A stretch of DNA of 64,000 nucleotides from Bdellovibrionaceae bacterium UBA2339 (GTDB taxonomy: Bacteria; Bdellovibrionota; Bdellovibrionia; Bdellovibrionales; JAMPXM01): contig DDUL01000047.1 of NCBI GenBank assembly GCA_002344785.1, positions 2,247 through 66,246 of the forward strand, given 5' to 3'. The position numbers were made by a program, and so were the translations under genes. Below the pieces are notes generated by a model that made no database searches, had not been told where the DNA came from, and saw only the letters and a list, made by a program, of their open reading frames with translations. The first letter of the stretch is position 1; each line of letters opens with the position of its first letter. Shown here in pieces: positions 7,245-57,499 of this stretch.

Positions 7245-7424
7245 GCGAGATCGTCCTTTCGCGGGGATTGAAAGTGTGCGGCGACTTCATGAGTGTGCCA
7301 ATTCCCAAGTAGGGGGCCGAGTCCAGACGCAACGTTTCGAAGTCGCAAGACACGGTTGGGTCGCGCGTTGAGAATCGCGTTAAGTACTTGAGTCCACGAA
7401 GGGGCGATGGGTCTGGACTTGAAT

Positions 7425-8966
7425 TTAGTCCCGACTGCGGATCACTAACCCACACAGGTGTCGCCCATGCGACGCGAGCAAGCTTTCCAAATCACGACAG
7501 GACGTCATTTGATCAGTGTCTCGGGATGCGTTTTGCGTGATCGAGCAGAGCATGTCTCGCCAAGCTCCGTCGACCTCGCTCAGTCGAGCCAGCTCTGTCC
7601 ACGGAATTGAGCCAGTGTTCAGGCCCGTGATTTGCCGCGTGCAAGCTTCGCGCACCTCAGGGGACACGGCATTCGCTCGCTGTTGGACATCGACGCTCTT
7701 TGTACGATGGGTCTCTTGAATTTTCACGTAACTGAATGACGCCCAATTCACAGGCTCTTGCGACAACGCCAGTTCCGCAGGCGCACTCGAGCGGAGCCTT
7801 TGCGCTTGCGACCGCAGGCTCGGCTGGGAGTCGCGACTGAGTTGGCGAATGAAATTGCGCAAGAAGACTTCGTTGATTTGCGCCGAAGCCGCAGACGGCT
7901 GGGCGGATGATCCGTAGGCTTGATTTTGGCGTGCGCGAAGGGGGTGAAGCGGACCAAGGTGAACTTGCAGCGAAGTAACTGGACCGAGCCGAGCAGAGGG
8001 GGGCGAATGCGGCGAGGCTGTCGGACGCAAGTCGTTGAGCGATCTTTGCCAAGCCGAGATCCACGATAGAGCCAGCTGAGCGCTGGGAATTTCGCGAGTA
8101 TTCGTGAAATCTTGGGTCCACGCGATCCACATGTTCATGTGATTTGAGTGCTGGGTTGGCGACGCTGAGTTCAGCGTCGATTGGAGTTCCGTGGCTTCGC
8201 AATGATGCAAAGCCAACCAGGTCAGCTCGAGACTCCAGAGACTGCGCGAATGACGGATGCGATCGCGGCAAGCATTTTCAGCAAGCTGAAAGCTCATATG
8301 AGGAGTCGCGCCGAGACTCCAGACTTGGGCCACCAATTGCGCTTCACCAGTAACTTGTGGACCGCCTGCGATGCAGTCGCAACGGACGAGATCAAGCCGC
8401 GAAGATTGGATCATCTCTTGGGACTCGCGCGCGAGAGCCTGTGTGCGGCGATCGTCGAGCACATCCAAACTGAGTAGTTGGAGATGAGATTGAGAAGGTC
8501 GCAGTGATCGAGCTTGAGTTCCTGTGATTTGATCGGCGACAGCCACACGAGGTGGGGATTCTTCGCGGCGAGGTGAGTTTCGAAAGACTTCAGCGGGACC
8601 GATTGGCGTTGACCAGCGCAAAATCCAGGCGGCGTTTCGCTCACCAAGATTGCGGACTTCCGCGGTGACAGGCAGGTTGAGTGCGGGGGCCTGTCGGGCG
8701 CGAAGTTGGGAATCAGTCTGGTCCGCATGCGAAGGACTTAAGATGAGCGCATGTGCGACGAAGCTCACGACCAAGACAAAGTTAGGGCGAAGTCGTGGGC
8801 CCGCATGAGCTGAAGAGTCTTTCAGAATCGAAGCGTTGAAATTCATGTGCAGCCCTTGATTCATATTTGAAGACTGGAGCTGGAGCCAATGGCGACGAGC
8901 CCAGTGGCCCAGATCAACTGGAAGCCGTGGGCCTGGATCGCAATCTGATTGGATAGCAATTCCCAT
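7425..8966 (-). CDS. Hypothetical secreted protein
   Basis: 513-aa ORF. An internal start at 8846 (MNFNAS...) gives a signal-peptide-like FVLVVSFVAHALILSPSHA. The protein is rich in Ser, Leu, Gln and Arg. I recognise no motif. Confidence 0.45.
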   Translation of the reverse strand: MGIAIQSDCDPGPRLPVDLGHWARRHWLQLQSSNMNQGLHMNFNASILKDSSAHAGPRLRPNFVLVVSFVAHALILSPSHADQTDSQLRARQAPALNLPVTAEVRNLGERNAAWILRWSTPIGPAEVFRNSPRREESPPRVAVADQITGTQARSLRPSQSHLQLLSLDVLDDRRTQALARESQEMIQSSRLDLVRCDCIAGGPQVTGEAQLVAQVWSLGATPHMSFQLAENACRDRIRHSRSLWSLELTWLALHHCEATELQSTLNSASPTQHSNHMNMWIAWTQDFTNTREIPSAQLALSWISAWQRSLNDLRPTASPHSPPSARLGPVTSLQVHLGPLHPLRARQNQAYGSSAQPSAASAQINEVFLRNFIRQLSRDSQPSLRSQAQRLRSSAPAELALSQEPVNWASFSYVKIQETHRTKSVDVQQRANAVSPEVREACTRQITGLNTGSIPWTELARLSEVDGAWRDMLCSITQNASRDTDQMTSCRDLESLLASHGRHLCGLVIRSRD

Positions 8967-9104
8967 GTTCGAGTCCGCTCAGCTCAGGTCAGCGACATTC
9001 GACTCTAAGGTGCTGGCATCGAGCCGCCGTCATGAAATGAGGCGGAAAAGTGGCGGCTGAGGCAATTTTCCGTAAGGATATGAGCCGCAAAAGTTCGGAG
9101 GTGT

Positions 9105-9911
9105 TCAAGGACGGGCTTTGAGGCGAAACACCCCAATGCGTTTCCATTGGAGCAACACATCTTCTTCGCGTGGCGAAGCGCCAAGATGGTGAATGACCAA
9201 GGGGCGGTGATCAGTGGTTCGTTGATCCGAGACCCAACCCATATGCGTCACCCCGCCGCCCAAATCCCAGGCGACAATATCGCAAGCGCGGTAGTCGGGT
9301 TCGGGCGTGAGGGCGAGGCGATGCTCATGCCGAGCGAAGAAGCGCATGAGATTGGGAACGCGACGATGATCGATGTTGGGATCAGGGGACGAGGACCACC
9401 AAATCTGCGGATAGGCTTCGAAGCTCTCGCGCATGTCGGCGTGAACCTCCATTTGTAAATCGCGATCGAGGGCGCGAAGGCCTCGTACAATGAGGTCTGA
9501 GCAAACGCCGCGATCCAACGGCACATCGCCGCCGGGGTAGGCGAGCTTGCTGTAGGAGGCGTCGTAGGCTTTGACTTGCTCGGTGAGGGCTCTCGCTCGC
9601 TGTAGAATTCTCTGACAGCTTTCCATGGAAAGGCTCACCGAGGCCTTCGACTCAATGCTCTCATTGACGAAGCTTTGGATCCATTGGGCCCGACGCGCTG
9701 ATGGTGAGTGTTTCGCGCGAACGATCGACCAAATCGTTGCACCGGCCTGGAGCAAGCCGATGAGGATCAAAACGTAGAGACCAATTTTGAGACGAGTGCG
9801 TAGATAACTTCCGACTTGATCCGGGCGCATGGGATTCATTGTTGATGAGCTGGACTGAAAATGTCGAGATGAATTGCGGGTCAGGTTAAGTGATTGCGGG
9901 CGGTTGCCCAC
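9105..9911 (-). CDS. DUF1287 domain-containing protein, membrane-anchored
   Basis: Blocks typical of DUF1287: YPGGDVPLDRGVCSDLIVRGLR, DLQMEVHADM, YPQIW, PDPNIDHRRVPNLMRFF, CDIVAW, THMGWVS, VIHHLG. The likely start is 9839 (MNPMRP...), followed by a TM helix (IGLYVLILIGLLQAGATIW). Confidence 0.7.
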   Translation of the reverse strand: MGNRPQSLNLTRNSSRHFQSSSSTMNPMRPDQVGSYLRTRLKIGLYVLILIGLLQAGATIWSIVRAKHSPSARRAQWIQSFVNESIESKASVSLSMESCQRILQRARALTEQVKAYDASYSKLAYPGGDVPLDRGVCSDLIVRGLRALDRDLQMEVHADMRESFEAYPQIWWSSSPDPNIDHRRVPNLMRFFARHEHRLALTPEPDYRACDIVAWDLGGGVTHMGWVSDQRTTDHRPLVIHHLGASPREEDVLLQWKRIGVFRLKARP

Positions 9912-9926
9912 CGTGCTTGACCGACT

Positions 9927-10829
9927 TTGCTTTGTCGCATTCTACTTGAGGTGCTCATCTCGAACAGCTTGCTGAGATCCTCAATGCTTGAGCTCGCTTC
10001 AGGAGCCACAATGAACACAAGGGTTTGGCCACTCAACTTGTTCCGCCTGTTGCGAGTCGTATCGCTGAGTCTGGTCGTAGTCTCAGCATTTCCCGAAGGG
10101 GCGGTGGCCTGTGAATGCAGTGAGAAGGTGTGGAATGAGCTGCGCACGGCGCCGGAGAAGGCGCGGATCGCGGCTTTGGTCCGCCGTCGCTCAGCGGAAC
10201 TGAGTTTGACTTCGCCCGGTGCTGTGAAATCAAACGAACCCGCCAAAGGCCAGCGAAGCGGCGGCGCAAAGCCTAGCGGATCTGACGGAGTCGTGCCGCT
10301 CGAGGTGATTCCGCTCAATGCCACGCCCCTGACGAGCTATAGGAGGAGTGGATCTTCCTGTGACGTCGAAATTTCCGAAGGACGTCAGTGGTGGCTCTTG
10401 TTGTCTCAGAATGAGCCAAACGATGCGCTGAAGAGCTGTCGCACTTTGGTATTCCCGATCGAGCGCGCCGGGGAATTGATTGATCGTTTGGCCAAGCAGA
10501 TCCCCAGCACGCCTTTACCCAACCCGGCTTGGTTGATTTGCAATGAAACCACCGACTGCGCCATGAGCCCTGAGTCAGGCTGCATAGGTCGCCTCAGTGT
10601 CAATCGTCGACATTTGGACCTCGTCCAGCAGTGGCGCAAAAAAGTCGAGCCGATGATTTCATGTCCATCACCCGCGGCTCGTCAGGCCAATGCCCAGCAA
10701 AAGCCCGGACAAAAACCCGGACAACAACCAGGACAAAAACCAGGACAACAAGCATCAGGACAAACAGGCCCATCGACGGGCGAAGAAGTTTTGGGCGAGC
10801 CTCGCTGCGTGAATCAACTTTGTCAGTAA
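9927..10829 (+). CDS. Secreted 10-Cys protein, TIMP/NTR-like N-terminus (paralog 1)
   Basis: The likely start is ATG 10011, with AGGAG 6 nt upstream. The signal peptide MNTRVWPLNLFRLLRVVSLSLVVVSAFPEGAVA is followed directly by CECSEKVW. Ten Cys sit at positions conserved in 11390..12049 and 17792..18505. A PGQK/PGQQ repeat linker precedes the terminal C-x-x-x-C. Confidence 0.5.
   Translation: MLCRILLEVLISNSLLRSSMLELASGATMNTRVWPLNLFRLLRVVSLSLVVVSAFPEGAVACECSEKVWNELRTAPEKARIAALVRRRSAELSLTSPGAVKSNEPAKGQRSGGAKPSGSDGVVPLEVIPLNATPLTSYRRSGSSCDVEISEGRQWWLLLSQNEPNDALKSCRTLVFPIERAGELIDRLAKQIPSTPLPNPAWLICNETTDCAMSPESGCIGRLSVNRRHLDLVQQWRKKVEPMISCPSPAARQANAQQKPGQKPGQQPGQKPGQQASGQTGPSTGEEVLGEPRCVNQLCQ
10704..10766 (+). 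repeat. 12-bp tandem repeat (about 5 units) encoding (PGQ[KQ])n inside paralog 1
   Basis: cccggacaaaaa / cccggacaacaa / ccaggacaaaaa / ccaggacaacaa, plus a degenerate fifth unit. Confidence 0.85.
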
Positions 10830-10924
10830 GGACTGTCACTGAATTGAGAAATTCATTTTTCTTAGAGAGTGCGAAGCCCACGGGCGAAGCATAAGGTCTA
10901 CACAAGGAAGAGGAGAAGGCGAAG

Positions 10925-11359
10925 ATGTTCTACTTCAAAACGACGTTGCTCCTGGCGGCTATGGGTTGTGTCATTCTCTTGGGTTTGAGTTTTGCCTGGA
11001 ATCTCATGGCCGCACTTCAGGCGCCCTACGTATGGAAAGCCAAGGGGCAAGTGGTCGAGATCTTGCCGCCACCTGCGGGTGACGCCGATCGAGTTCCTCC
11101 CAGCGGCTCGCAAGTTGTCGTCGAGTTCACGGACGCGGTGACCGGACAATTAAAGCGCGAAGCATTCAATCAGTTTAACTCGGGTGGAGCCACCGTCTTT
11201 CACAATCGAAATGTCGGCGACACCGTAGAATTTGAATTGCGCAGCGATTCTCCCGTTCCGGGCGCTGAGAAGACCCACGCATGGGGCGACGTCGGTAAAG
11301 TTGCGTTGATTTTTGGCGGGTCCATCGCAGGAATTGGCGCACTAATTTTATTGTTTTGA
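10925..11359 (+). CDS. Small two-TM membrane protein (DUF3592-like topology)
   Basis: 144 aa with an N-terminal TM (LLLAAMGCVILLGLSF), a central soluble beta-rich segment and a C-terminal TM (VALIFGGSIAGIGALILLF). A GGAGAAGG-type SD lies upstream. Confidence 0.4.
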   Translation: MFYFKTTLLLAAMGCVILLGLSFAWNLMAALQAPYVWKAKGQVVEILPPPAGDADRVPPSGSQVVVEFTDAVTGQLKREAFNQFNSGGATVFHNRNVGDTVEFELRSDSPVPGAEKTHAWGDVGKVALIFGGSIAGIGALILLF

Positions 11360-11389
11360 AGGGCTCACGCTCATTTCAAGTCGGGAGAC

Positions 11390-12049
11390 ATGATGCGAAG
11401 ATTGAAAGTGATCGAAGGGATTTCGTTGCGACGATGCGCGATCGTCGCGGGCTCAGCAATGTTGAGCCTACTGATTTCTGTGAACTCGGCCGAGGCCTGC
11501 TCTTGTGTGGCTGGCATTCATGAGCGTTTGATGAACAATCTCGAGCAAGTGAAGGTCGCGGCTCTTGTTCGCGCACCGACCCACGTTGTCCAAGCCGATG
11601 GCAAAATCGCGGTTGATGTGAAGAGCTTCAATGGTTTTCACTTTTCAAGTGTTGGGCCGTCGAAGTCCACCTGCCACATCGTGCCCCAAGAGGGGCGATG
11701 GATGATCGTCATTTCTGAATCGAATCCGGAGACGGGCTTCATTTCGTGCTCCACCTATAGTGAGACCTTGAATGTGAAGTCGGAAGCTCTGCAAAAACTA
11801 GCCAAGCTCTGGACGCACGGATCTTCGCCCAATCCGATTTGGTCGGTCTGCGAGAAGGATGCGGAGTGCGTGATGCAACCCGCGACCACGTGCTTGGGTG
11901 CGCTGGCGGTGAATCGCAAGAGTCAAACTCAAGCGAAGAACTGGCGAACAACTTTTGAGCGCGAGTCGAGCTGTGAGGCGACGGCTAACACGAAAAAGGA
12001 TGCGAAGCTCAGTGCGTTTTGTGATGCAGGAGTCTGCGCGCTCAAGTGA
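11390..12049 (+). CDS. Secreted 10-Cys protein, TIMP/NTR-like N-terminus (paralog 2)
   Basis: The signal peptide ends ...LLISVNSAEA and is followed by CSCVAGIH. Family blocks are conserved: STCH..EGRWMIVISES, ISCSTY...ALQKLAKLW, NPIWSVCEKDAECV, TTCLGALAVNRK, W(R)...SSC, and C-terminal FCDAGVC. Confidence 0.5.
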   Translation: MMRRLKVIEGISLRRCAIVAGSAMLSLLISVNSAEACSCVAGIHERLMNNLEQVKVAALVRAPTHVVQADGKIAVDVKSFNGFHFSSVGPSKSTCHIVPQEGRWMIVISESNPETGFISCSTYSETLNVKSEALQKLAKLWTHGSSPNPIWSVCEKDAECVMQPATTCLGALAVNRKSQTQAKNWRTTFERESSCEATANTKKDAKLSAFCDAGVCALK

Positions 12050-12082
12050 TTTGTCGGCAGGGCATGTGAATTCGCGGAGGGC

Positions 12083-15000
12083 TCAATACCCGTTGTTCGG
12101 ATAGCCGTAGATGGTGATCCCAGCGGGCCCCGCGCCGGCCGAGTACACACAAGTGCGGCCGCTATAGTCTCCATGGCCTTGATAGTAGCCAAAGTTGGGT
12201 GAGTACAAACAGTGTTCGTTGGCATGACAAAGACCATCGTCATTGCCAATTCCATCGTCGAGAATTTCAGCCGCATTGAAGAGGTAGAGCTGGGATGAGT
12301 TATCCATGCCGCTGAGTGTGCCGCTCACGGCCGCGGGGCAAGCTGCGCCCACCGTGAAAGTGCCGTTGGGATTTGTGGCGTCGCCACTGTGATTGCGAAC
12401 CTTGCCGGCTGTGGACTTAAGACTCCAGTCATAGATGCCGCCAGAGCCGGAGTTGAACGCATTTGTCAGACTCGCGTTGGCGGTGAAGTTCGTGGCGAAG
12501 GTTGTGAGAACGCGTGCGAAGTTCTCAAAATTGATGAAGTCCATACTCGCATAATAGCTCAAGCCCGTTGCGCCATTTGTGGCGGCGTTGGTCGTGGTGT
12601 TCAATGAGTCATTGGTGTTGCCAACAAAGTCGCTTTCGATCGCCATGTAGGCGGCGAAGTTACCGCCTTGGGCGTTACAGTTGGTGGCTCCGTTCCAGTC
12701 GCAAGCATTGGTGTTTTTGACTAAATGCGTGCCTTGGCTGGTGAGACTGACGCTGGTGCCACCCCAGATGGGATTGATGTTCGTAGCGACTCCAGCAAAT
12801 TGCGAAAGCCTAAGATCTGTCGCAACATCATTAATGCCAACGTCTATTCCCCACTCCGCATTGGCGACGAGAAATTGGTGCAACTGCGTTCCGGAAGAAG
12901 GGTTGAGAATCGAAGCGCCGCTAAAGTACGCTCCGATTACAGTGACGTGTGAAACCTTGAGTCCTGTGCCGTCCGTGACGTAAATTCCATTTCCATCTGT
13001 GCTGCCATCGCCGGCTCCCGAGATGACACCGCGATAAACCAAGTTGCTCGACGCGTTTTGGTCTTGCCAGATTCCGTTGGTCACGTTGTTGATGTTGAAG
13101 TTCGTAATGGCGTTGCCGGTAACTGGGTTTGTGCCGATCAGTTCAATGCCGGAGTCAAATCTCGAAATTCGCACTTCGGAAACGCGATTGTAACTGGTCG
13201 GTCCGCCCGTGCCCTCTAGCGAGAGGCCAATTGAGGCTGTGCCTCGAATGCCATCCCAGTTTGATTTGTAGAGGACATTGAACGTGGAGTCTTTAAGGTA
13301 GCTGCCTTCGCGTGTGCCGATAAAAGTGGTGCCCGCAAGAATGGAATTTCGCACACCTCTCCAGTCCGAGGCCATCCAAGTGTTCGAGGCCACGTCCACG
13401 AGAAACTTAGAGAGCATCACCCGCAAAAAGCTGGAGCTCACGGCATTGATCAGCGTGCCGGACGTCACCGACGCGACGTTCACGTCAGCCTCGATCCAAG
13501 TGTAGTTTCGACTGCCCATGCAGAATACGGAGATCACCGTTGGTGATGTGGTACTTCCTGTGGAGGGATTGCAGTTCGCGGAAGCGCCCGCGGCTAGGTT
13601 GATGCTGGCGCCGGCGGCAGTGACCACCGACACATTGTGTGCGGCGATGTTGTAGCCCTGATTCGTGCCCGACAAATTGATGTTGGTGGCCGTCGCGTAG
13701 ATTGCGGTGGTTGAGTTAAGTGTTGCGCCTGTGGTCGGGAGAGCCATCACCACGTTGGACCACCACACAGCTGGACTTGATTGCGCGACCGTCACGCCAC
13801 TTTTGACAACAGTGATGGAGTTGGTCTTCCACTGTGGGCTTCCCGAAAAGTCGATGAGTTGCCGAAGCGGTGAAGTGACATTCATTTTGCTTGTGCGAAG
13901 GATCACCGTGGGCGCCATGCTGGTGTCGTCACAAACCCAAGTGAAGGCATTGAGGGTATCGGTCGCGGTCACGCCTGCACAGCTTCCTAAGCCTAAAGCG
14001 AAATCCACGCGACGAAACTCACCAGCGTGAATGCAGCTCGTGGCTCCCGACTCCGCCATGCCACCGCAGTTCGTGGGCGCCGCGTAGGTCGAGGCCGCTT
14101 GAACATAGTCCGTCCATGCGGACTTTCCGGTGTAGAGAGCGCCGACTGTGACGCTGCCGACAACTGAGTTGGTCGAAAAGCTTCGCGTTGCGGATTGCGC
14201 GACACCATTGGCGGTCGCGCTGAGGTTGAGCTGACCACTCGAAGTTCCCACCGTCGAAGGCGTGTAGCGCACCACAACCGTGCAGCTGGCCTGCGGCGCG
14301 AGGCTTGTGCCACAGGTGGTGGATTGCACCGAAAACTCAGTGCCTGTCGAACTCGCGGCAAAACCTGAGAGCGAGTACACGCTGCTCAGATTGGAAACGG
14401 TGAAGCTCGTGTCGGAGAATGTGCCAAAGGCGACGTTCGGCACCAGCGTCGGTGACGATACTTGAATCAAGCCGGTCGAGCCCGGAGCGCTCAAGAAGTT
14501 GCACGAGTTGATTTTGGTCGTGTCATCTAAGGCCGAGTTCGCTGTGATCTCGACATTGTTTTCACCGGGCGCAATATCCAAAGTTCGTTGCCCGATGAGA
14601 TAGGGCATGGAGTACTGCGACCAAGTCAGGCTGGGATGTCCCTCCGAGCTGATCGCAAATTTTTCGCACTGACCGCTCACGAGCTTTAAGCCTGCGACAT
14701 AGAAGCGCATGCTTTTTCCTGCTGGCACTTCCAAGGTCGCAGTCGATCCTGCGGCAAACGTCCCAACGAGCTGTCCAAAGCGCATGATTTCCGTGTTCTG
14801 TGTGTTTTGGCAGGCGTTGTTCGAAAGCTCAGGGCTACTGCCGCCGACGAAGACGGCATAGCAGCCGATCTCACTGAGATTCGCAGGAGTGGCCGAGTTC
14901 CAGTTTGGCTCGCTCAGGCTCTGCGCCTGCACACTCAAGGACTTTTCGACCTGAGAAGCCGAAGCGCCAAAGATCGAGTGATCGGGCGAGCCCACGGGGC

Positions 15001-15229
15001 TGGATTTGCTATTCGAACTTTTCGTGGTGCTGCCGTTGATTTGGCCTGGAAACTGAATCGTCAGTCGGCCTGTGTCTTCTTTCTTCGCGGTACAGCCGAG
15101 AGATCCGCCCAGCCCGATGAGGCTAGTCAAAACCCAAACCGTCGGCGCGAGGCCTCGCACTCCGGCACGTGTGCGGAGTTTGTTCCGAGCAAGTGAACGG
15201 ATGAGTTGTTGAATGCGAATGACCAACAA
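12083..15229 (-). CDS. Large surface lipoprotein with an Ig-like (choice-of-anchor-D/HYDIN-like) module and a right-handed beta-helix-like repeat region
   Basis: 1048 aa with a lipobox (LIGLGGSLGC). The segment FTVSNLSSVYSLSGFAASSTGTEFSVQSTTCGTSLAPQASCTVVVRYTPSTVGTSSGQLNL matches the 'C-x-x-x-L-x-x-x-x-x-C-x-h-x-h-x-F-x-P' pattern of choice-of-anchor-D domains. A long Asn/Gly/Thr/Ser-rich periodic region follows, typical of pectate-lyase-fold beta-helices. The tail is Cys/Tyr/Gly-rich. Confidence 0.5.
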   Translation of the reverse strand: MLVIRIQQLIRSLARNKLRTRAGVRGLAPTVWVLTSLIGLGGSLGCTAKKEDTGRLTIQFPGQINGSTTKSSNSKSSPVGSPDHSIFGASASQVEKSLSVQAQSLSEPNWNSATPANLSEIGCYAVFVGGSSPELSNNACQNTQNTEIMRFGQLVGTFAAGSTATLEVPAGKSMRFYVAGLKLVSGQCEKFAISSEGHPSLTWSQYSMPYLIGQRTLDIAPGENNVEITANSALDDTTKINSCNFLSAPGSTGLIQVSSPTLVPNVAFGTFSDTSFTVSNLSSVYSLSGFAASSTGTEFSVQSTTCGTSLAPQASCTVVVRYTPSTVGTSSGQLNLSATANGVAQSATRSFSTNSVVGSVTVGALYTGKSAWTDYVQAASTYAAPTNCGGMAESGATSCIHAGEFRRVDFALGLGSCAGVTATDTLNAFTWVCDDTSMAPTVILRTSKMNVTSPLRQLIDFSGSPQWKTNSITVVKSGVTVAQSSPAVWWSNVVMALPTTGATLNSTTAIYATATNINLSGTNQGYNIAAHNVSVVTAAGASINLAAGASANCNPSTGSTTSPTVISVFCMGSRNYTWIEADVNVASVTSGTLINAVSSSFLRVMLSKFLVDVASNTWMASDWRGVRNSILAGTTFIGTREGSYLKDSTFNVLYKSNWDGIRGTASIGLSLEGTGGPTSYNRVSEVRISRFDSGIELIGTNPVTGNAITNFNINNVTNGIWQDQNASSNLVYRGVISGAGDGSTDGNGIYVTDGTGLKVSHVTVIGAYFSGASILNPSSGTQLHQFLVANAEWGIDVGINDVATDLRLSQFAGVATNINPIWGGTSVSLTSQGTHLVKNTNACDWNGATNCNAQGGNFAAYMAIESDFVGNTNDSLNTTTNAATNGATGLSYYASMDFINFENFARVLTTFATNFTANASLTNAFNSGSGGIYDWSLKSTAGKVRNHSGDATNPNGTFTVGAACPAAVSGTLSGMDNSSQLYLFNAAEILDDGIGNDDGLCHANEHCLYSPNFGYYQGHGDYSGRTCVYSAGAGPAGITIYGYPNNGY

Positions 15230-15552
15230 GCGACTTTCTCCCGATTTGAGCTAACGTACTTAGGTCCAAAAGCTTTATCGGCAGGTCGAGTCGAGTTGAA
15301 GAGTCACAAAATGAGACGAAGCGAATATTGTGAAAAACGCGATTGAGGCGAAGGCATCAACTCGCAAATCTGTTTCAAATTGATTCAAGATCTTCAAGAA
15401 CTCGTGGATGCAGACATTCGACTTGTGTTGGCGTGAAATTCATTCGCTCCAAGCCGTTGAATTTGGCGGTGATCTCGACTCAGGCCTTTGCATGTGGCAA
15501 ACATGCCCCCTGACTTCTCAATCCATAAATACAAAACTGCGGAGCGGCTTCT

Positions 15553-16035
15553 ATGCGGCGTATTCAACTCAAGATTCTTCGTTCGACTTCCACTGTGTGG
15601 CTTTTCACTTTGTTGATCATGGTACTTGTCGGTCAGCCTCGCGAGGCGACGGCAACAGCCACAGCCACTTCAGCGGTCACAACCGCAGCGAGCTCGCCCC
15701 TGCAGGCGGTGACGCAATCCCAGAGTTACCGAGAACTCTGGGATTCCATGTCGCAAATGGCGGCGCTGGATCAGAGACTTTTGAATTGGTCGGACTTAGT
15801 TGAAGAGCGACAAGCGGATGGCAAAGTGTCGATCCGCTTGAGCTTCATTGCTGTACGTCACTTTCGACCTGGTCACTCCGCTCCGCCGATGTGGAGAAGC
15901 TCGCAGCTTGGTGCAGAAGTCGGCTGGTTTGATGCGATTCGATCTTATGGTGAAGTTCGCGCTTTGGTTATGTTCGACGAATCCCAGTCAGGTTGGATTT
16001 TGATCGACTTTCACTACCGACCCTCGCTTCGCTAA
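15553..16035 (+). CDS. Hypothetical exported protein
   Basis: 160 aa with GGAG 8 nt upstream. It has an N-terminal hydrophobic segment (VWLFTLLIMVLVG) and an (AT)n linker. I recognise no motif. Confidence 0.4.
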   Translation: MRRIQLKILRSTSTVWLFTLLIMVLVGQPREATATATATSAVTTAASSPLQAVTQSQSYRELWDSMSQMAALDQRLLNWSDLVEERQADGKVSIRLSFIAVRHFRPGHSAPPMWRSSQLGAEVGWFDAIRSYGEVRALVMFDESQSGWILIDFHYRPSLR

Positions 16036-16112
16036 ACCAAACACTCAGCTGAGCATGGCTTTCCCCAAGCTTTGAGTTAATCGCGATATAAGTTTGAGTT
16101 CCAGTCAGAGAC

Positions 16113-16144
16113 AAAACGCGCCCGACCAGGGGCGCGTTTTTTTA
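16113..16144. terminator. Rho-independent terminator (bidirectional architecture)
   Basis: AAAACGCGCCC-GACCA-GGGGCGCGTTTTTTT has an A-run on the 5' side and a T-run on the 3' side. It lies about 80 nt after the stop at 16035. Confidence 0.7.
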
Positions 16145-16563
16145 TGCTCATCACTCATCTTAGAGAAACGGCAGAGCTAATGAGGGGTCGCGACACTCAG
16201 AATGCGTGTCGCACCCAGTTCTCGAACTGGCATCGAACTTGAACTCTCTCAATCTCGATGAGTGCGGTGATCGTCGCCGCCTGAAGGAGGACGTCGAACA
16301 AAAGTCGAAACGTGTTTGCGTTGTGAGTTCGAAACATGAGTCGAGTGATTTGGGTCTCGAGGCAAATCGAGACATGCGACATAAGGAGGTTATTCGAATG
16401 TCCACATTTTCGAGATCCAGGCTGCGCGGCTCACCGACATGGTCCCGACTGAGAGAGTTAGGAAGGAGTGTCACAAACCCAAGCGCAGTTCACGGCGCGC
16501 CCACTGGCACAACGACTGGTGTAATCCGGGGCATTCGCAAATCCTTGCCTCAGGTGGCGGGCC

Positions 16564-17700
16564 TTGACCCGCCCTCAGAACTTGGGCGCTGGCACGCGGC
16601 GAAACTCAGCCTCGTGTGAACAGCAATTTAGGGACTTTGACAGAAAACTCACAGAGTCTCTCCAGTGCCTCGTTGCACGCTCGGCCCGAGTCATTTATGA
16701 CTCGGGCCTTGTTTTTCGGGGGGACCTCATGCGCATTCACAACGGATCCGACTCAACTCTTTCGCTGAGCTTAAAGTTCGCTCTGTGCCTCAGTCTGCTG
16801 ACGTTGGCGGTCCCGGCTCGCTCTCAGACTCAGGCCGAAGCGCCGGCGGCGACCAGCTCGACGCGAGCTTCGGAGTTTGTCGGGCAAAAAAAGTTTGAAG
16901 AAACACAAACGATCAGTGATGCGAAACTCAAAGCAGATGGAGGCTCGCTCTCAAGGTTCTCCATGAAGGGAAGCCTCTCTTACTTTGGACCGACATTTGG
17001 AGATTTGTCGGCTGCGGATCAGCCCAATCCCGATGGTGGTGTCGGTGTCTACGCGCAAGCCGTGCGTGGCAGTGTGAGCGGTCGCTATCGATTCTCGTCG
17101 GACTCGGCCATGAGTGCGGGCACAGGCGTCGCATTTCTCAAGCCCTTTCATGGTTGGGAGCGTACCGACGTCAACAATCCCTTTGTGAGCTATGATTTCA
17201 ATTCGCGATGGGCGGGGATTCAAGCACGCAATTCTCTGGGCGCGTCCGTGACGACAGTGCCGAACTATCGCAACACCGGTCAGGTGGGTGGGCTCAACGC
17301 CGGCCAGAGTTTTGTTTATCGCTTGATGGGCTCGGGATGGGCATTGAGTTTCGACTATGATCTTTCCTACTGGATCTTTGAGCGAAGCTATCGACCCGGT
17401 TCAACTCGTCGAGGCGGCGACGGCTTGGTGTCTCAGTGGACGATGTCTTGGATTCCGGGCGTGAAGTACAACTTTTCCGATAAGCTCAATGTCAACGCCA
17501 CAGTTGGATTCTTAGCCTACAACCCGCGCTCGACCACGGACTTGGGTGTGATTTGGAGTCGCACGCCGACATTGCGCCTTGGGGCGGGCTACGCTTTGAC
17601 TCGCGATGTGTACTTGAACCCCTACATTCAAGGCTTCGCGACCAACATGCGGGCGGAAATGGTGACGATGAATGTTTCGGGAGTGTTTTCCGTTCTTTGA
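16564..17700 (+). CDS. Outer-membrane beta-barrel-like protein of unknown function
   Basis: The track ORF is probably over-extended. The likely start is ATG 16729 (MRIHNGSDSTLSLSLKFALCLSLLTLAVPARSQTQA, a signal peptide). The mature part shows alternating hydrophobic/polar beta-strand periodicity with many Tyr/Gly/Ser/Asn. Confidence 0.45.
   Translation: MTRPQNLGAGTRRNSASCEQQFRDFDRKLTESLQCLVARSARVIYDSGLVFRGDLMRIHNGSDSTLSLSLKFALCLSLLTLAVPARSQTQAEAPAATSSTRASEFVGQKKFEETQTISDAKLKADGGSLSRFSMKGSLSYFGPTFGDLSAADQPNPDGGVGVYAQAVRGSVSGRYRFSSDSAMSAGTGVAFLKPFHGWERTDVNNPFVSYDFNSRWAGIQARNSLGASVTTVPNYRNTGQVGGLNAGQSFVYRLMGSGWALSFDYDLSYWIFERSYRPGSTRRGGDGLVSQWTMSWIPGVKYNFSDKLNVNATVGFLAYNPRSTTDLGVIWSRTPTLRLGAGYALTRDVYLNPYIQGFATNMRAEMVTMNVSGVFSVL
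16683..16716 (+). terminator. Intrinsic terminator/attenuator hairpin abutting the RBS of the next gene
   Basis: GGCCCGAGTCA-TTTA-TGACTCGGGCC (perfect 11-bp stem) is followed by TTGTTTTT. The SD-like GGGGGGA starts 2 nt later (16718) and the ATG is at 16729. Confidence 0.6.
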
Positions 17701-17791
17701 TTGAGTTCAGTGCGAAATCCTCGCTCTTCACGTCAAAGCCCCAGCAAAAAAACAGTGGTCAAAGCTCAAAGCATGGTTTGAGCTTAAGGCC

Positions 17792-18505
17792 ATGAAACGT
17801 CTGATTCAAAATCTACTCGTTCTGATCATTGGTCTTTACTCGCAGGAGGCATGGTCCTGCCGATGCGCTCCCACGGTTTGGGATCAGCTCTCAAAAGATC
17901 CCACCCAAGCGGGGATCATCACGCTGCTCAAAGTTCCGAAATCAATCGAGCCAGAGAGCGGCCCACCGAAGAAGCCTGAAGCTTTCACGCCGCGCCAGTT
18001 GAAACTTGAACTGAAGCCTTACAAGCGAGGCGCGCCTCAAGTTTGGAATGAAACTGGTAGCTCGTGCGATCTGCGATGGAATGAGGACGTGTGGTACGTG
18101 CTCGTGAGTCAATCGACAGCTGAGCATCAGCCGATGCTTTGCAACTCGTGGGTTCGTCCCGTCGAAGAGGCCACAGAACTGCTCGCAAAGCTTGAAAAGG
18201 CTTGGGATAAAAGTCAAACCCAGGCGAATCCGCATTGGTCTGTGGGGTGCAAAAAGCATTCGGATTGTGTGGTTGACGAAAGTCGCGGCTGTTTGCCGAG
18301 CACGGCGATCTTGCCTCGGCATAGAGCCGCCATCACCAAGTGGCGCAAAGAACAGGAGCCGCGTCTTAACTGCGAGTCGGCTCCTGGGCCAGGTGCCGTA
18401 TCGGGCGCAAGTGCCGCCGGTAAATCAAGTCCGGCGAAGTCGGCCAAGCCTCCGAGTTTGAGCGCGCGTTGTCATACAGGAGTTTGTGAACTCGAGTATC
18501 GTTAG
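17792..18505 (+). CDS. Secreted 10-Cys protein, TIMP/NTR-like N-terminus (paralog 3)
   Basis: The signal peptide MKRLIQNLLVLIIGLYSQEAWS is followed by CRCAPTVW. Family blocks: SSCDLRWNEDVWYVLVSQS, MLCNSWVRPVEEATELLAKLEKAW, NPHWSVGCKKHSDCV, RGC, W(RK)...LNC, and C-terminal RCHTGVC. Confidence 0.5.
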   Translation: MKRLIQNLLVLIIGLYSQEAWSCRCAPTVWDQLSKDPTQAGIITLLKVPKSIEPESGPPKKPEAFTPRQLKLELKPYKRGAPQVWNETGSSCDLRWNEDVWYVLVSQSTAEHQPMLCNSWVRPVEEATELLAKLEKAWDKSQTQANPHWSVGCKKHSDCVVDESRGCLPSTAILPRHRAAITKWRKEQEPRLNCESAPGPGAVSGASAAGKSSPAKSAKPPSLSARCHTGVCELEYR

Positions 18506-53684: not shown

Positions 53685-53951
53685 TTATTTCGATGCGGCT
53701 TTGTGAGCCAGCTTCGCGAGGCGGCTCATTTTTCGAGCCACTGTCTTCTTGTGCATAGCGCCCTTCGCGACGGCTTTGCTGAATTTGGAATTCAACTCTT
53801 TGAGAGCTTCGGGAACGGCCTTTTTGTCGCTGGCCAAAAGCGAGCGAACTTTCTTTTCAACCGTGCGAACCGCAGCTTTAGTTTGCGAGTTGCGTGCGTT
53901 GCGACGGACATCCTGACGAGCGCGTTTTTCTGCGGACTTATGAGTTGCCAA
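53685..53951 (-). CDS. rpsT: 30S ribosomal protein S20
   Basis: 88 aa. MATHKSAEKRARQDVRRNARN is the canonical S20 N-terminus, and the composition is highly basic. Confidence 0.95.
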   Translation of the reverse strand: MATHKSAEKRARQDVRRNARNSQTKAAVRTVEKKVRSLLASDKKAVPEALKELNSKFSKAVAKGAMHKKTVARKMSRLAKLAHKAASK

Positions 53952-54038
53952 GGGTTAACCTCCCCAATAACGACAGAGGGAGAAGGCGTAACACGTCGCA
54001 CCCCGGTTTTGCAACACTTTGTCAGGGCCCAAGTCAGG

Positions 54039-54080
54039 GGCCGAACATGGGCCGAACATGAGCCGAACATGAGCCGAAGT
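54039..54080 (+). repeat. 11-bp tandem repeat (3.8 units) spanning the murJ start codon
   Basis: ggccgaacatg / ggccgaacatg / agccgaacatg / agccgaagt. Each full unit carries an ATG (54047, 54058, 54069). Confidence 0.9.
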
Positions 54081-55769
54081 CCCCACTCATCGGAGAACTC
54101 AACTGAAACGCAGAGCGTTGGCAGGCAAGGCCCGCTCAGCCGATCCGTTGCCTCGGTGACCTCGGTTGCCAGGTCGGCAAGCCTTGTGGCGTTGGGGACT
54201 TTGGCCTCGCGCGTGCTGGGACTTTTGCGCGACATGCTGCTGGCGCGACACTTTCCGCCCGAGGTCCGCGACGCCTTCGTGGTGGCCTTTCGGTTACCCA
54301 ATATTTTTCGCCGCCTCTTTGGCGAGGGCGTGTTGGCGGCAAGCTTTCTTCCCAGCCTGGTCAGCGCACTCACGCGGCCAACATCTCCGGGCGAGGCCAC
54401 GCGACTGGTCGGAGCCGTATTCACTTTGCTGTTGTCGCTGACCTCGCTGATTTCGCTTCTCGGTATTGTGTTCATGGATGAGTTGATGCGGCTGCTGTTG
54501 AGCGGCGGATCTTTCGATGATGTGCCGGGCAAATTTCAGCTCACTGTGGACTTGGCGCGCATCATGTTTGGTTTTGTGGCGCTGGTTTCCATCTACGCGT
54601 TTTTCATGGCCGTGCTCAATAGCTTGCATCGCTTCGCACTCGCGGCGGTGGCGCCTTGCTTGTTCAACCTCAGTCTCATCGTTGCGATCCTCGGTTTTCG
54701 CGGCCAAGCCCAAGCCGAGCGAGCTTTGGCGTGGAGTGTGATTGTTGGTGGGGCGCTGCAGATGCTGATTCTCGTACCGGCGATCCGCCGCGCAAGGCAT
54801 TGGCCGAAGTTGGGTTTCTTTTGGTCGAGCCCACAGGGGCCGCAGCCCGTGTGGACGCTACCCGAAGTGCAGAAAGTGTTTGCGGCGATGGGACCAAGCC
54901 TCTTGGGCCTAGGTGTTTTGCAAGTGATGACCGTCCTCAATGTGATCTTCGCTTCAAGACTTCCGCAAGGCGCGCACACGGCCATTTACTTAGCGGATCG
55001 ACTCTTTGAGCTGCCGCTGTCGCTGATTGCGGTCAGTGTGGGCTCGGCCATGCTGCCCACTCTGTCAGGCCAATGGGCTGCAGGTGATACCGCGAAGATG
55101 ACGGCGACTTTGCGTCGCGGGCTTCGCTTCGTGTTGTTTTTGGCTTTGCCCTCGGCGGTCGGGCTTTTCATGTTGGCGGAACCGATCACCGAAGTTTTGT
55201 TTCAGGGCCGCGAGTTTCGCTATGCGGATGTGCTGATGACCTCGCAGGTGATCCGCGTGTCGGCGATCGGCTTGGTGATGGCCGCTGTGGTGAAGCTCTT
55301 GGCGCAAGGATTCTTCGCCGTGGGAAACACTTGGTTTCCGGCCGTGGCGGGCTTGGTGACCTTGGCTTGCCATGCGGTGTTTGCTTGGGCGGGCACGCGG
55401 ACCATGGGACTTGTCGGGTTGACGGCGGCGACTGTGCTTTCCAGTTTGGTGAATGCGGTGCTGTTGGGTTTGGCCTATTCAAAGTGGGTGGGGCCGTTGC
55501 AGTGGCGGCAGACCGCGGGCTTGATGTTGAAGCTGGTGTTGGCTTGCGTGGCGCTGGCGGCGGGGTGTTTGATTTACGAGCCCCTGGTGCTGGAGTTTGG
55601 TTCGCGCTTCTTGACTCGGTCGGTGGCGCTGGCGGCTGCGATTGGCCTGGCCAGTGCTTTGTACTTCATCGCAACGGCGATCTTGCGCGTGCCTGAACTG
55701 AACGAGTTCGCCGCGCGGACTCGCGAGTTGATCACGGCGCGACTTCGGCGCTCAGCCACCAAGTCCTAA
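54069..55769 (+). CDS. murJ: Lipid II flippase MurJ
   Basis: ASRVLGLLRDMLLARHFPPEVRDAFVVAFRLPNIFRRLFGEGVLAASFLPSL matches the MurJ/MviN N-terminal signature. The protein is polytopic throughout. The track ORF start (53703) runs antisense through rpsT and is spurious. ATG 54069 is the first in-frame start after rpsT. Confidence 0.9.
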   Translation: MSRSPHSSENSTETQSVGRQGPLSRSVASVTSVARSASLVALGTLASRVLGLLRDMLLARHFPPEVRDAFVVAFRLPNIFRRLFGEGVLAASFLPSLVSALTRPTSPGEATRLVGAVFTLLLSLTSLISLLGIVFMDELMRLLLSGGSFDDVPGKFQLTVDLARIMFGFVALVSIYAFFMAVLNSLHRFALAAVAPCLFNLSLIVAILGFRGQAQAERALAWSVIVGGALQMLILVPAIRRARHWPKLGFFWSSPQGPQPVWTLPEVQKVFAAMGPSLLGLGVLQVMTVLNVIFASRLPQGAHTAIYLADRLFELPLSLIAVSVGSAMLPTLSGQWAAGDTAKMTATLRRGLRFVLFLALPSAVGLFMLAEPITEVLFQGREFRYADVLMTSQVIRVSAIGLVMAAVVKLLAQGFFAVGNTWFPAVAGLVTLACHAVFAWAGTRTMGLVGLTAATVLSSLVNAVLLGLAYSKWVGPLQWRQTAGLMLKLVLACVALAAGCLIYEPLVLEFGSRFLTRSVALAAAIGLASALYFIATAILRVPELNEFAARTRELITARLRRSATKS

Positions 55770-55792
55770 GATTTCTGAGATATTGCCTTAAC

Positions 55793-57499
55793 TTGAATTT
55801 TCACACCTTGGCGCTAGTCTGTGGGAGTTTGCGGCGCTCTCGCAACGAAGGTGGTAGGCCCCTGTCCAACTCGCTCAACAATGCATTAGGCAACTCATCA
55901 GGTTCGTCGGCTTCGCTGAGAGATCGGCTGGCGAGACTTCCTTTGCGAGCATGGAAGTGGATGGGCGGCGCGGCCGCCATCATGTTGTTGATTTTAATTT
56001 GGTCGCCCATTCACGAGATTCGCGTCGCGCATTTTTTGGGCGTGCACACATTGCTTGAGATCACTTGCGTGATGATCGGGCTGATGATTTTTAGCGTGCA
56101 GCTGATCTTGCGTCGTCACGACTTCATTCAGCTTGAGAAGTTTCAATTGCTCGGACTGCCGTTTTTGGGAATCGCACTGCTCGATTTAGCCCATGCGCTG
56201 TCATTCCCGGGCATGCCCGAGTTCGTTACGCCGGGTTCCTTGCAGAAGTCGATCAGTTTTTGGTTGGCCGCGCGAGGCCTCGAGGCGCTGGCGTTTTTGT
56301 TCTTTGCGACGAACTACAGGCGAACCAGCGAGCGCGTGCTGAGCACCTGGAAACTCGTCCTGTTTCTCTCGGCGTACGTGGGCGGGACGACGGCTGTGAT
56401 TTTGGCCTCGCCTGAAATTCTTCCGAGCTTCGTCGATCTCGACGGCTCCTTGTCGACGGCGAAGGTCGGCATTGAATTGATCTTCGTGATCTTGCACCTG
56501 TTGATTGCGTGGATGCTCTTGACGGCTTCGCGCGGTGTGGACTCGCGAATTGCGGATTTGATTGTGTCGTCGATGTTGGTGGCGATCTCCGGCGCGGCCT
56601 TCACCACGTACCGCGACGCTCACGACATGCTCATGCTCTATGGGCATGTGCTCAAGGTGCTGGCGTACTTCTTCATTTTGCGAAGCTGCTTGCTGAACGA
56701 ATTGATTGAGCCCTTTCAGCGCTTGGTGGAAGTGAATCGTTCATTGCAGGAGCATTCAGCCAATCTTCGCGATCTGCAGTCGCGGCTGACTCGTAGTGAG
56801 CGGCTCGGGGCCATTGGCGAGAGTCTCGCCACTGTGGTGCATGATCTGAACAACATGTTGTTTGTGACCGAATGGTCGACAGAGAGAATCGTCAAGGCGA
56901 TGTCGGGATCTGCGCCTAACGAAGACGTTGAAAAGTCGAGTGCGGCGATCTTGATGAGTTTGCGAAAGACGCGCGAGTTTCAGAAATTGTTGTTGAGCAA
57001 AGCCAAGGGTGAAGGCGGCGGTACGGCTCGAGAGATCCGTCTCGCGGTGGAGCTCGCGGAGTTTCGGATTGTGTTGGAATCGCTCGCTGGGCGTGATGTG
57101 CAGCTCGATATCCAATGCGACAATGAGTTGAGCTGCGTCGTTGATCCATTGCAGCTTGAACAAGTGTTGATGAATTTGGTCGTCAACGCGCGCGATGCGC
57201 TGAAAGCTGTCGAACGCGTCGGCGGACGGCGGGTGCTTTTGAGCTTTCAAGAAGGGCAAGACTTGGGTCGTTACGGCGTTTGGATTCGCGTGCGCGATAA
57301 TGGGCGCGGCATGCGCTCGGAAGATTTGAGTCGCGTCTTCGATCCGTTTTACAGTACGAAGTCCGACGGCGGCACGGGCTTGGGCCTGGCCACGGTGAAA
57401 TCCATCGTGGATGCCTGGGGCGGCCGAATCACCGTGCAGTCGCGCGAAGGTGAAGGCAGCGAGTTTCAGATTTGGCTGCCACGGTCGCCCGCGGTTTGA
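55793..57499 (+). CDS. Sensor histidine kinase with a polytopic (MASE3-like) N-terminal sensor domain
   Basis: There are about 7 TM helices (including HTLLEITCVMIGLMIF). The H-box-like motif is ATVVHDLNNML, the N-box is NLVVNARDA and the G-box is GGTGLGLATVKSIVDAWGG. The start is uncertain (alternative MGGAAAIM...). Confidence 0.8.
   Translation: MNFHTLALVCGSLRRSRNEGGRPLSNSLNNALGNSSGSSASLRDRLARLPLRAWKWMGGAAAIMLLILIWSPIHEIRVAHFLGVHTLLEITCVMIGLMIFSVQLILRRHDFIQLEKFQLLGLPFLGIALLDLAHALSFPGMPEFVTPGSLQKSISFWLAARGLEALAFLFFATNYRRTSERVLSTWKLVLFLSAYVGGTTAVILASPEILPSFVDLDGSLSTAKVGIELIFVILHLLIAWMLLTASRGVDSRIADLIVSSMLVAISGAAFTTYRDAHDMLMLYGHVLKVLAYFFILRSCLLNELIEPFQRLVEVNRSLQEHSANLRDLQSRLTRSERLGAIGESLATVVHDLNNMLFVTEWSTERIVKAMSGSAPNEDVEKSSAAILMSLRKTREFQKLLLSKAKGEGGGTAREIRLAVELAEFRIVLESLAGRDVQLDIQCDNELSCVVDPLQLEQVLMNLVVNARDALKAVERVGGRRVLLSFQEGQDLGRYGVWIRVRDNGRGMRSEDLSRVFDPFYSTKSDGGTGLGLATVKSIVDAWGGRITVQSREGEGSEFQIWLPRSPAV

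Follow-up and report, generated by a model that had tools for sequence, protein, structure and literature searches.

Tissue inhibitors of metalloproteinases (TIMPs; TIMP-1 to -4, MEROPS family I35, Pfam PF00965) are regarded as an animal invention. In structures of TIMPs with matrix metalloproteinases (MMPs), the alpha-amino and carbonyl groups of Cys1 ligate the zinc. Inhibition depends critically on this N-terminal Cys and is abolished when the chain is longer by one residue at its N-terminus, and residue 2 goes into the S1' pocket of the enzyme (PMC2871463). The netrin-like (NTR, also C345C; PF01759) modules of netrins, complement C3, C4 and C5, sFRPs and PCPE are usually internal or C-terminal, carry six Cys and are mostly non-inhibitory (PMC2871463). 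In bacteria, single-domain TIMP-like proteins have been mentioned in a passing remark as occurring in "various Eubacteria" (PMC3516229, citing Brew and Nagase 2010), and the pair Mtz-Tim of Listeria monocytogenes was recognised by Phyre2 (Boichis et al. 2021, PMC8235301). Tim is encoded beside the metzincin Mtz on phage or mobile elements of Firmicutes; the Listeria protein is a lipoprotein that Mtz cleaves about 50 residues in, its homologs in other Firmicutes have signal peptidase I signal peptides, and the authors of that study came across no further TIMP-like structure from bacteria in the literature (PMC8235301). Our own full-text search for TIMPs of bacteria, of prokaryotes in general or of Bdellovibrio turned up nothing closer than these two reports. 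The serralysin inhibitors APRin/Inh (MEROPS I38) also interact with a metzincin in a TIMP-like manner through their N-terminus (PMC8235301), and, for predatory bacteria, a need to protect themselves from the hydrolases that they export has been established (PMC4686830). Here we describe three paralogous genes, A, B and C, in a 64,000-nt stretch of DNA from a predatory-type bacterium (Bdellovibrionaceae bacterium UBA2339, contig DDUL01000047.1; the whole stretch is called the window below). Their products are predicted to be Sec-exported, disulfide-rich two-domain proteins and, as judged from structure models, are bacterial proteins of the TIMP/NTR structural kind.

The three genes and their predicted parts are as follows.

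10011..10829 (+), paralog A: open reading frame (ORF) of 272 aa; family hidden Markov model (HMM) score 168 bits; ratio of nonsynonymous to synonymous substitution rates (dN/dS) 0.18

10011-10109 (+), predicted signal peptide of A, ending in AVA

10110-10118 (+), Cys1-Glu-Cys3 of A, predicted start of the mature chain

10110-10511 (+), predicted N-domain of A

10512-10826 (+), predicted C-terminal 6-Cys module of A

11390..12049 (+), paralog B: ORF of 219 aa, with a ribosome-binding site and an AlphaFold2 model of the mature chain

11390-11497 (+), predicted signal peptide of B, ending in AEA

11498-11506 (+), Cys1-Ser-Cys3 of B, predicted start of the mature chain

11498-11821 (+), predicted TIMP-like N-domain of B

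11822-12046 (+), predicted C-terminal 6-Cys module of B

17792..18505 (+), paralog C: ORF of 237 aa; family HMM score 183 bits; dN/dS 0.19; ortholog P0007, with a copy on the related contig L001

17792-17857 (+), predicted signal peptide of C, ending in AWS

17858-17866 (+), Cys1-Arg-Cys3 of C, predicted start of the mature chain

17858-18214 (+), predicted N-domain of C

18215-18502 (+), predicted C-terminal 6-Cys module of C

The start of A is placed at ATG 10011, which has GGAG 5 nt upstream and agrees with the database protein; P0004, named "hypothetical protein [Pseudobdellovibrionaceae bacterium]", is identical to A. B starts at ATG 11390/11393 behind GGGAG and C at ATG 17792 behind AAGG. 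All three ORFs of an earlier note on this DNA, made from the letters alone, exist, and the position 9927 at which that note began the region corresponds to an upstream TTG extension of A. The three proteins share 24-28% identity in pairwise comparisons (BLASTP E 6e-24, 8e-20, 1e-23), and their alignment has 28 invariant columns, among them the ten Cys of the mature chain, so that their description as clear paralogs stands. The motifs listed in the earlier note were all recovered as well: AVA, AEA and AWS ahead of CEC, CSC and CRC, the stretches IAALV, VAALV and IITLL, S-(S/T)-C with its hydrophobic run, the fourth Cys followed by a helix, and NP.W..C....[DE]C. A six-frame scan of the window with the family HMMs found A, B and C and no fourth copy. 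Measured against the orthologs on L001, dN/dS is 0.18-0.24 (0.24 for B), which indicates that these are real genes under purifying selection.

An exhaustive HMMER search over 1.84 billion representatives (E<=1e-3) returned 70 cluster representatives of the family, 22 of them at E<=1e-10. The N-terminus was analysed in an alignment of the 50 members having the N-module, with cleavage predicted from the (-3,-1) rule together with family-wide conservation. Before the first Cys, position -3 is Ala in 33 of the 50 and small in nearly all the rest, position -1 is Ala in 42 and Ser in five, and position -2 is mostly bulky or charged (W/F/E/L/Y, also R/H). Because this -3/-1 pattern is of the signal peptidase I type, Cys1 is predicted to be the first mature residue, with A-x-A/S standing directly before C-x-C, in A, B and C and in 46/50 relatives. 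This agrees, as a prediction, with the proposal that cleavage leaves Cys as residue +1 of the C-x-C motif. In the four exceptions, the likely cut in P0044 leaves Ala-Asp before the Cys, P0010 carries a good lipobox, LASC, 7 residues ahead of the Cys, Ser replaces Cys1 in P0055, and the N-terminus of P0064 is truncated. A Cys directly behind a signal peptide could also belong to a lipoprotein, in which case Cys1 would be diacylglycerol-modified after a signal peptidase II cut and its alpha-amino group would be blocked. P0029 (LIA before the Cys) does fit the lipobox expression [LVI][ASTVI][GAS]C, and the upstream LASC of P0010 points the same way, but only one of the 50 members matches. A, B and C have no canonical lipobox, as had been noted before: their residues at -2 are V, E and W, and at -3, where the alignment favours Ala, none of them has Leu. 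The residues at -2 and -3 thus argue against lipidation, which we regard as extremely unlikely and have rejected.

Searches by sequence assigned the proteins to no described family. No Pfam or NCBIfam model matched A, B or C at E<=10 and no PDB sequence matched them, and none of the family representatives had a Pfam, NCBIfam or PDB sequence match above significance. Specifically, Pfam TIMP gave no match for A, B and C at E<=10 nor for the 50 relatives at E<=1, and PDB profile searches with the family returned no TIMP. Pfam NTR likewise missed A, B and C at E<=10 and was matched below threshold only in two of the 50 relatives, on a "C..L..G..YLI" stretch (best E 0.023; P0021 reached 12.5 bits against a cut-off of 21.9). 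Alignment with hhalign to human TIMP-1 to -4 was not significant either locally (P=0.028) or when forced to be global (P=0.084).

Structure prediction gave a different picture. AlphaFold2 was run on the mature chain of B with the 50-sequence alignment and produced a model with a mean predicted local distance difference test score (pLDDT) of 94.1 and a predicted template modelling score (pTM) of 0.88, in which strand 20-26, strand 69-73 and helix 96-104 match the motifs noted in the sequence. When this model was compared with the PDB by Foldseek, ranks 1-8 were all occupied by TIMP-1 (E 0.035-0.27, template modelling (TM) score 0.4-0.58), including 9sos (E 0.035, probability 0.80) and N-TIMP-1 3ma2_B (probability 0.85, target-normalised TM 0.58, 116 columns, root-mean-square deviation 4.3). 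The C345C/NTR domains of complement C3, C5 and cobra venom factor followed at ranks 12, 18, 31 and 43. As controls, the B model compared with viral structures (BFVD) and the C-terminal module compared with the PDB both gave probabilities <=0.10. The model of B predicts that the N-domain of about 108 residues is an oligonucleotide/oligosaccharide-binding (OB) barrel of the TIMP/NTR type; that Cys1-x-Cys3 is stapled in it to two later Cys is indicated by the Cys losses described next. The earlier note had expected such an OB/TIMP-like domain, and no database match placed the family in an unrelated characterised fold; its suggestion that the proteins might be members of PF00965 or PF01759 failed in the profile searches above.

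The wiring of the staple could be read from the natural losses of Cys in the family. The second Cys of C-x-C (Cys3) is lost in six database members, and the same six, with no others, lack the fourth Cys of the N-module (CysIV); two genomic relatives (L089 and L021) have also lost Cys3 and CysIV together, bringing the total to eight cases. P0055 lacks Cys1 and it alone lacks the third Cys (CysIII), and none of the four N-domain Cys is left in four further relatives, of which L026 has three and L059 one. No unpaired loss was found among the 50 aligned members and the genomic relatives. The losses being strictly paired, we infer the bonds Cys1-CysIII and Cys3-CysIV, an order that would be the same as C1-C70 and C3-C99 of TIMPs. 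CysIII lies in an S-x-C loop ahead of a hydrophobic "YLxLS" strand and CysIV comes after that strand; in the local hhalign alignment CysIII falls on C70 and CysIV on C99 of TIMP-1, and in the forced global one all four N-domain Cys fall on C1/C3/C70/C99. The same data bear on another role for the C-x-C motif, namely metal binding or redox activity, as in a periplasmic copper/zinc chaperone or a thiol oxidoreductase. Terminal vicinal Cys-x-Cys can in general bind soft metals or do redox chemistry, but Cys1 and Cys3 are never lost as a unit, which argues against such a site. The eight losses of Cys3 with CysIV and the one of Cys1 with CysIII are those of two structural disulfides, and the even number of Cys, with all ten invariant, in an exported protein points in the same direction. 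The metal or redox reading is therefore very unlikely, and we rejected it on the paired losses.

The C-terminal half of the proteins is a module with the motif W..C..D.DC......C...VN..Y...W......C....C....C. Its separate model (pLDDT 89.4, pTM 0.75) predicts an alpha/beta unit of 75 residues, which has a long helix at its centre and holds three disulfides; the best Foldseek match of this model in the PDB was no better than E 4.9. Other secreted proteins of Bdellovibrionota consist of this module alone, in one, two or three copies (P0037, P0038, P0042, P0054, L044:7081-7668). Since it lacks a PDB fold match and occurs alone and in tandem, it is not a TIMP C-terminal subdomain, as the three further disulfides had first suggested, but a separate mobile module. 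Its fold, small and disulfide-rich, may be new, and the module would serve as an independent domain, probably for binding or localisation. Weak matches to the Pfam Squash-inhibitor model were obtained in five of 20 C-modules, on the C..D.DC......C stretch (best E 0.0036), and squash-type peptides were the best matches among PDB sequences (E 1.1 and 5.6). We rejected this identity for the module, as these sub-significant matches cover the Cys spacing only and a 75-residue alpha/beta unit is not a 30-residue knottin. The Squash matches also enter a further explanation, according to which the proteins inhibit another class of hydrolase, either the zinc-dependent peptidoglycan hydrolases of predation or serine proteases via the C-module. 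Predators of the Bdellovibrio type do require protein-based immunity to the cell-wall enzymes that they make themselves (PMC4686830), and the C-module is secreted alone and in tandem. Beyond the weakness of the Squash matches and the different fold, no such hydrolase gene was found adjacent to the family genes, and we consider this explanation unlikely.

Within the module of paralog A, the linker between Cys 8 and Cys 9 (about 10700-10770) is a low-complexity QKPGQKPGQQPGQKPGQQ repeat (QKPGQ-repeat linker), in place of which the ortholog of A has a linker shorter by 22 residues. The same linker position is Ala/Ser/Gly/Pro-rich in C and has almost no linker in B.

Compared with TIMPs, the family shares a predicted signal peptide followed directly by Cys1-x-Cys3, an OB-barrel N-domain with TIMP-1 as the best PDB fold match, Cys1 and Cys3 each apparently bonded to a later Cys in the order of C70 and C99, the S-x-C loop ahead of a hydrophobic "YLxL" strand, and a two-domain plan with three disulfides in the C-terminal half. 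On the other hand, it has no significant sequence similarity to TIMPs. The TIMP N-domain has three disulfides, C13-C124 being the third, and the protein 12 Cys in all, whereas the family has two and ten. Residue 2 is Ser/Thr in TIMPs and mostly Arg/Lys in the family (Glu, Ser and Arg in A, B and C), the C-terminal half of the family is predicted to have a different fold with a long helix and to be an autonomous module, and the family is bacterial and an inhibitor only by our reading. Because the PF00965 and PF01759 models fail, the third disulfide is absent and the C-terminal half differs, A, B and C should not be filed as members of the TIMP family. With NTR modules they share the fold class, seen in the matches to C3, C5 and cobra venom factor, but in the family the domain is N-terminal, with a predicted free Cys1 and four Cys.

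Listeria Tim resembles the family in being a bacterial exported protein that is TIMP-like by structure prediction and not by sequence. By its description it is set apart: the family genes are chromosomal in Bdellovibrionota and without a paired protease in the window, Cys1 is at the predicted N-terminus, and an extra 6-Cys module is present. The serralysin inhibitors are alike in the proposed logic, being periplasmic proteins that protect the producer from its own metzincin, but they are without a Cys-x-Cys tip and their gene lies inside the protease operon. Their fold is an unrelated eight-stranded beta-barrel. Bd3460 of Bdellovibrio is alike in concept, as an exported protein for self-protection against the predator's own prey-directed hydrolases, but is an ankyrin-repeat protein acting on DD-endopeptidases and has no structural relation to the family (PMC4686830).

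Our main reading is that A, B and C inhibit zinc metallopeptidases as TIMP-style wedges, a proposal to which we give a probability of about 0.5. The rigid N-terminal ridge of the N-domain would enter the active-site cleft of such an enzyme, where Cys1 would chelate the zinc with its free alpha-amino and carbonyl groups and residue 2 would reach into the S1' pocket. Each of the three inhibitors might have its own target, probably among the metalloproteases that the predator itself exports, with a role in periplasmic or surface self-protection or in timing control. At residue 2, 39 of the 50 members (78%) have Arg or Lys, and this residue flips between close orthologs, from Glu to Lys for A and from Ser to Phe for B. 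Between B and its ortholog almost all of residues 2-8 are replaced, with overall identity still at 77%. Such variability fits a reactive site and paralogs aimed at different targets. The basic residue 2 leads us to predict targets with an acidic S1' pocket, unlike the specificity of MMP-type enzymes. M43 and M35 enzymes are examples of enzymes with such a pocket.

Several observations weigh against inhibition. The similarity to TIMPs is clear in ranking and modest in score, as none of the Foldseek matches of mature B in the PDB reached E<=1e-3, and significant sequence similarity to TIMP/NTR is lacking. The third N-domain disulfide of TIMPs is absent, with four Cys in the N-domain and ten in the protein, and residue 2 is Arg/Lys in place of the TIMP Ser/Thr. 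P0044 and P0010 have apparent N-terminal extensions of 2 and 7 residues. Neither HExxH scans nor tblastn found an HExxH zincin in the 64-kb window, and no recurrent protease was found in eight neighbourhoods of relatives. Two of the relatives' contigs, from Bacteriovorax metagenome-assembled genomes (MAGs), do encode homologous large PKD-containing proteins (L026:4786-7998 (-) and L059:3-2003 (+); 29% identity, E 1.5e-40) with a zincin-like HEYxHxLQSR...EG.A[DE] motif. These putative zincins stand directly upstream of family genes, three copies and a TPR protein in L026 and one copy in L059; they had no Pfam, NCBIfam or PDB match and could be matched to no known peptidase family. Their position next to the family genes is the one suggestive sign in favour of inhibition. 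The family copies beside them start differently and have lost all four N-domain Cys, and since those copies are Cys-less, the exact Cys1 tip is not required for whatever role they have. The NTR domain of PCPE-1 begins right at its first Cys and has no inhibitory effect on metzincins (PMC2871463).

These points lend weight to the view that the TIMP/NTR fold is present without protease inhibition. The N-domain would then be a disulfide-stabilised OB module that binds another envelope or prey component, comparable to the NTR modules of netrin, complement, sFRP, PCPE and agrin, and Cys +1 would merely give a compact, well-packed N-terminus. Most NTR modules are not inhibitors, no protease was found in the window or in most other contexts, Cys-less and N-extended relatives exist, and the genes lie within a conserved block of exported proteins without assigned function, including those of 1048 aa and 378 aa. 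What speaks for inhibition instead is that Cys1 is exactly the first residue after an A-x-A site in 46/50, a position that a structural Cys need not occupy; that residue 2 varies between close orthologs as inhibitor reactive sites do; and that, among NTR-type proteins, an N-terminal module with a free Cys1 is known in TIMPs only, which have the same architecture as the family. On this balance we consider a non-inhibitory role possible, though somewhat doubtful.

Beyond the putative zincins, the eight neighbourhoods contained a recurrent alpha/beta-hydrolase (Bacteriovoracaceae), an abutting pepN once, and once an ATLF-family gene 4.7 kb away. The pepN case is on a Bacteriovoracaceae MAG (L021:2832-6111), where the family member without Cys3 and CysIV abuts the 3' end of the M1 aminopeptidase N gene (HEYFHNYTGNRVT) on the same strand with a 2-nt overlap. 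As PepN is normally cytoplasmic, this adjacency is probably coincidental. In four Bacteriovoracaceae contigs (L005, L006, L093, L094; P0019/P0020/P0021), the family gene lies divergently beside the Abhydrolase_1 gene in a housekeeping neighbourhood with an epimerase, an acyltransferase, accA and relA, and an N-module-only member on L007 (P0043) also abuts an Abhydrolase_1 gene.

The family is rare, unannotated and essentially confined to Bdellovibrionota. Word-indexed protein searches returned close orthologs only, and nearly all members are unnamed metagenomic singletons. Most are about 200 aa long and follow the two-module plan of A, B and C. Others have the N-module only (P0014, P0029, P0043, P0057, P0074), and members with the C-module only are numerous, carrying one, two or three copies behind a signal peptide (P0042, P0046, P0037, P0054, P0038). 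To cover genomes, one genome per GTDB species was scanned with a degenerate DNA motif and the matches were filtered with the family HMM. The scan gave 82 matches, of which about 60 are matches by chance, including a series of Nitrosarchaeum contigs. The true matches came almost only from Bdellovibrionales, Bacteriovoracaceae/Bacteriovorax, Oligoflexia and "Bdellovibrionota" MAGs, with one "Endomicrobium" bin and one Elusimicrobia bin as strays outside Bdellovibrionota.

At the locus itself, two further genes lie among the paralogs.

10925..11359 (+), between A and B: ORF for a protein of 144 aa with hydrophobic segments at both ends

12083..15229 (-), between B and C and convergent with B: ORF for an exported protein of 1048 aa, given as context only

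The 144-aa protein has no Pfam match; its ortholog, at the same locus position in L001, is 93% identical with a dN/dS of 0.05. It is a probable operon partner. The 1048-aa protein has only a weak Cep192_D4 match in Pfam, and neither a protease domain nor an HExxH motif was detected in it by Pfam and HExxH scans. It has a 1046-aa counterpart in a relative, where the gene order A / 144-aa / B / 1046-aa / 168 aa / 378 aa / C / DUF1993 is kept. As for the other neighbours, the DUF1287 gene named in the earlier note was recovered by a Pfam scan of the window ORFs, and the C1 protease placed in the same block was not, with no Peptidase_C1 match in the 20 window ORFs scanned. The DUF1287 gene (9105-9911) is missing from the related contig L002, and the gap between a 174-aa gene and paralog A (window 7245-10010) is about 2 kb longer than in L002:6242-6993, which together indicate a local insertion or deletion. 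A 513-aa ORF (7425-8966) also lies within this indel; it finds no support in the databases and might not be a true gene.

Across the window (1-64000), GC skew is positive in 31 of 32 2-kb bins, the 48-50 kb bin being slightly negative, so that the window lies within one replichore. No break in composition was seen around A, B and C. A strong negative AT skew at 53703-57499 (-0.29 and -0.18 at 54-58 kb) was considered as an unusual feature and dismissed, as it reflects ordinary T-rich coding for membrane proteins (a MurJ/MviN-like polytopic protein and a membrane sensor histidine kinase).

The family is predicted to reproduce three working features of TIMPs, a free Cys1, two stapling disulfides and an OB barrel, without detectable sequence similarity, and does so in predatory bacteria that export many hydrolases. 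This opens the question of whether the mechanism of an N-terminal amine on the zinc serves as self-protection in Gram-negative predators, and that of the origin of the TIMP design. In its boldest and more tentative form, the proposal would be that Bdellovibrionota carry genuine, zinc-chelating TIMPs, with the animal TIMP fold and staple arising through deep homology, ancient transfer or exact convergence and fused to a previously unseen module of three disulfides; the paralogs, with Glu, Ser or Arg at residue 2, would each neutralise a different predatory metalloprotease and together form a self-immunity system. The acidic-S1' targets predicted from Arg/Lys at residue 2 could yield new inhibitor scaffolds, and the C-module, widespread alone in the same phylum, is a candidate for a new small disulfide-rich fold.

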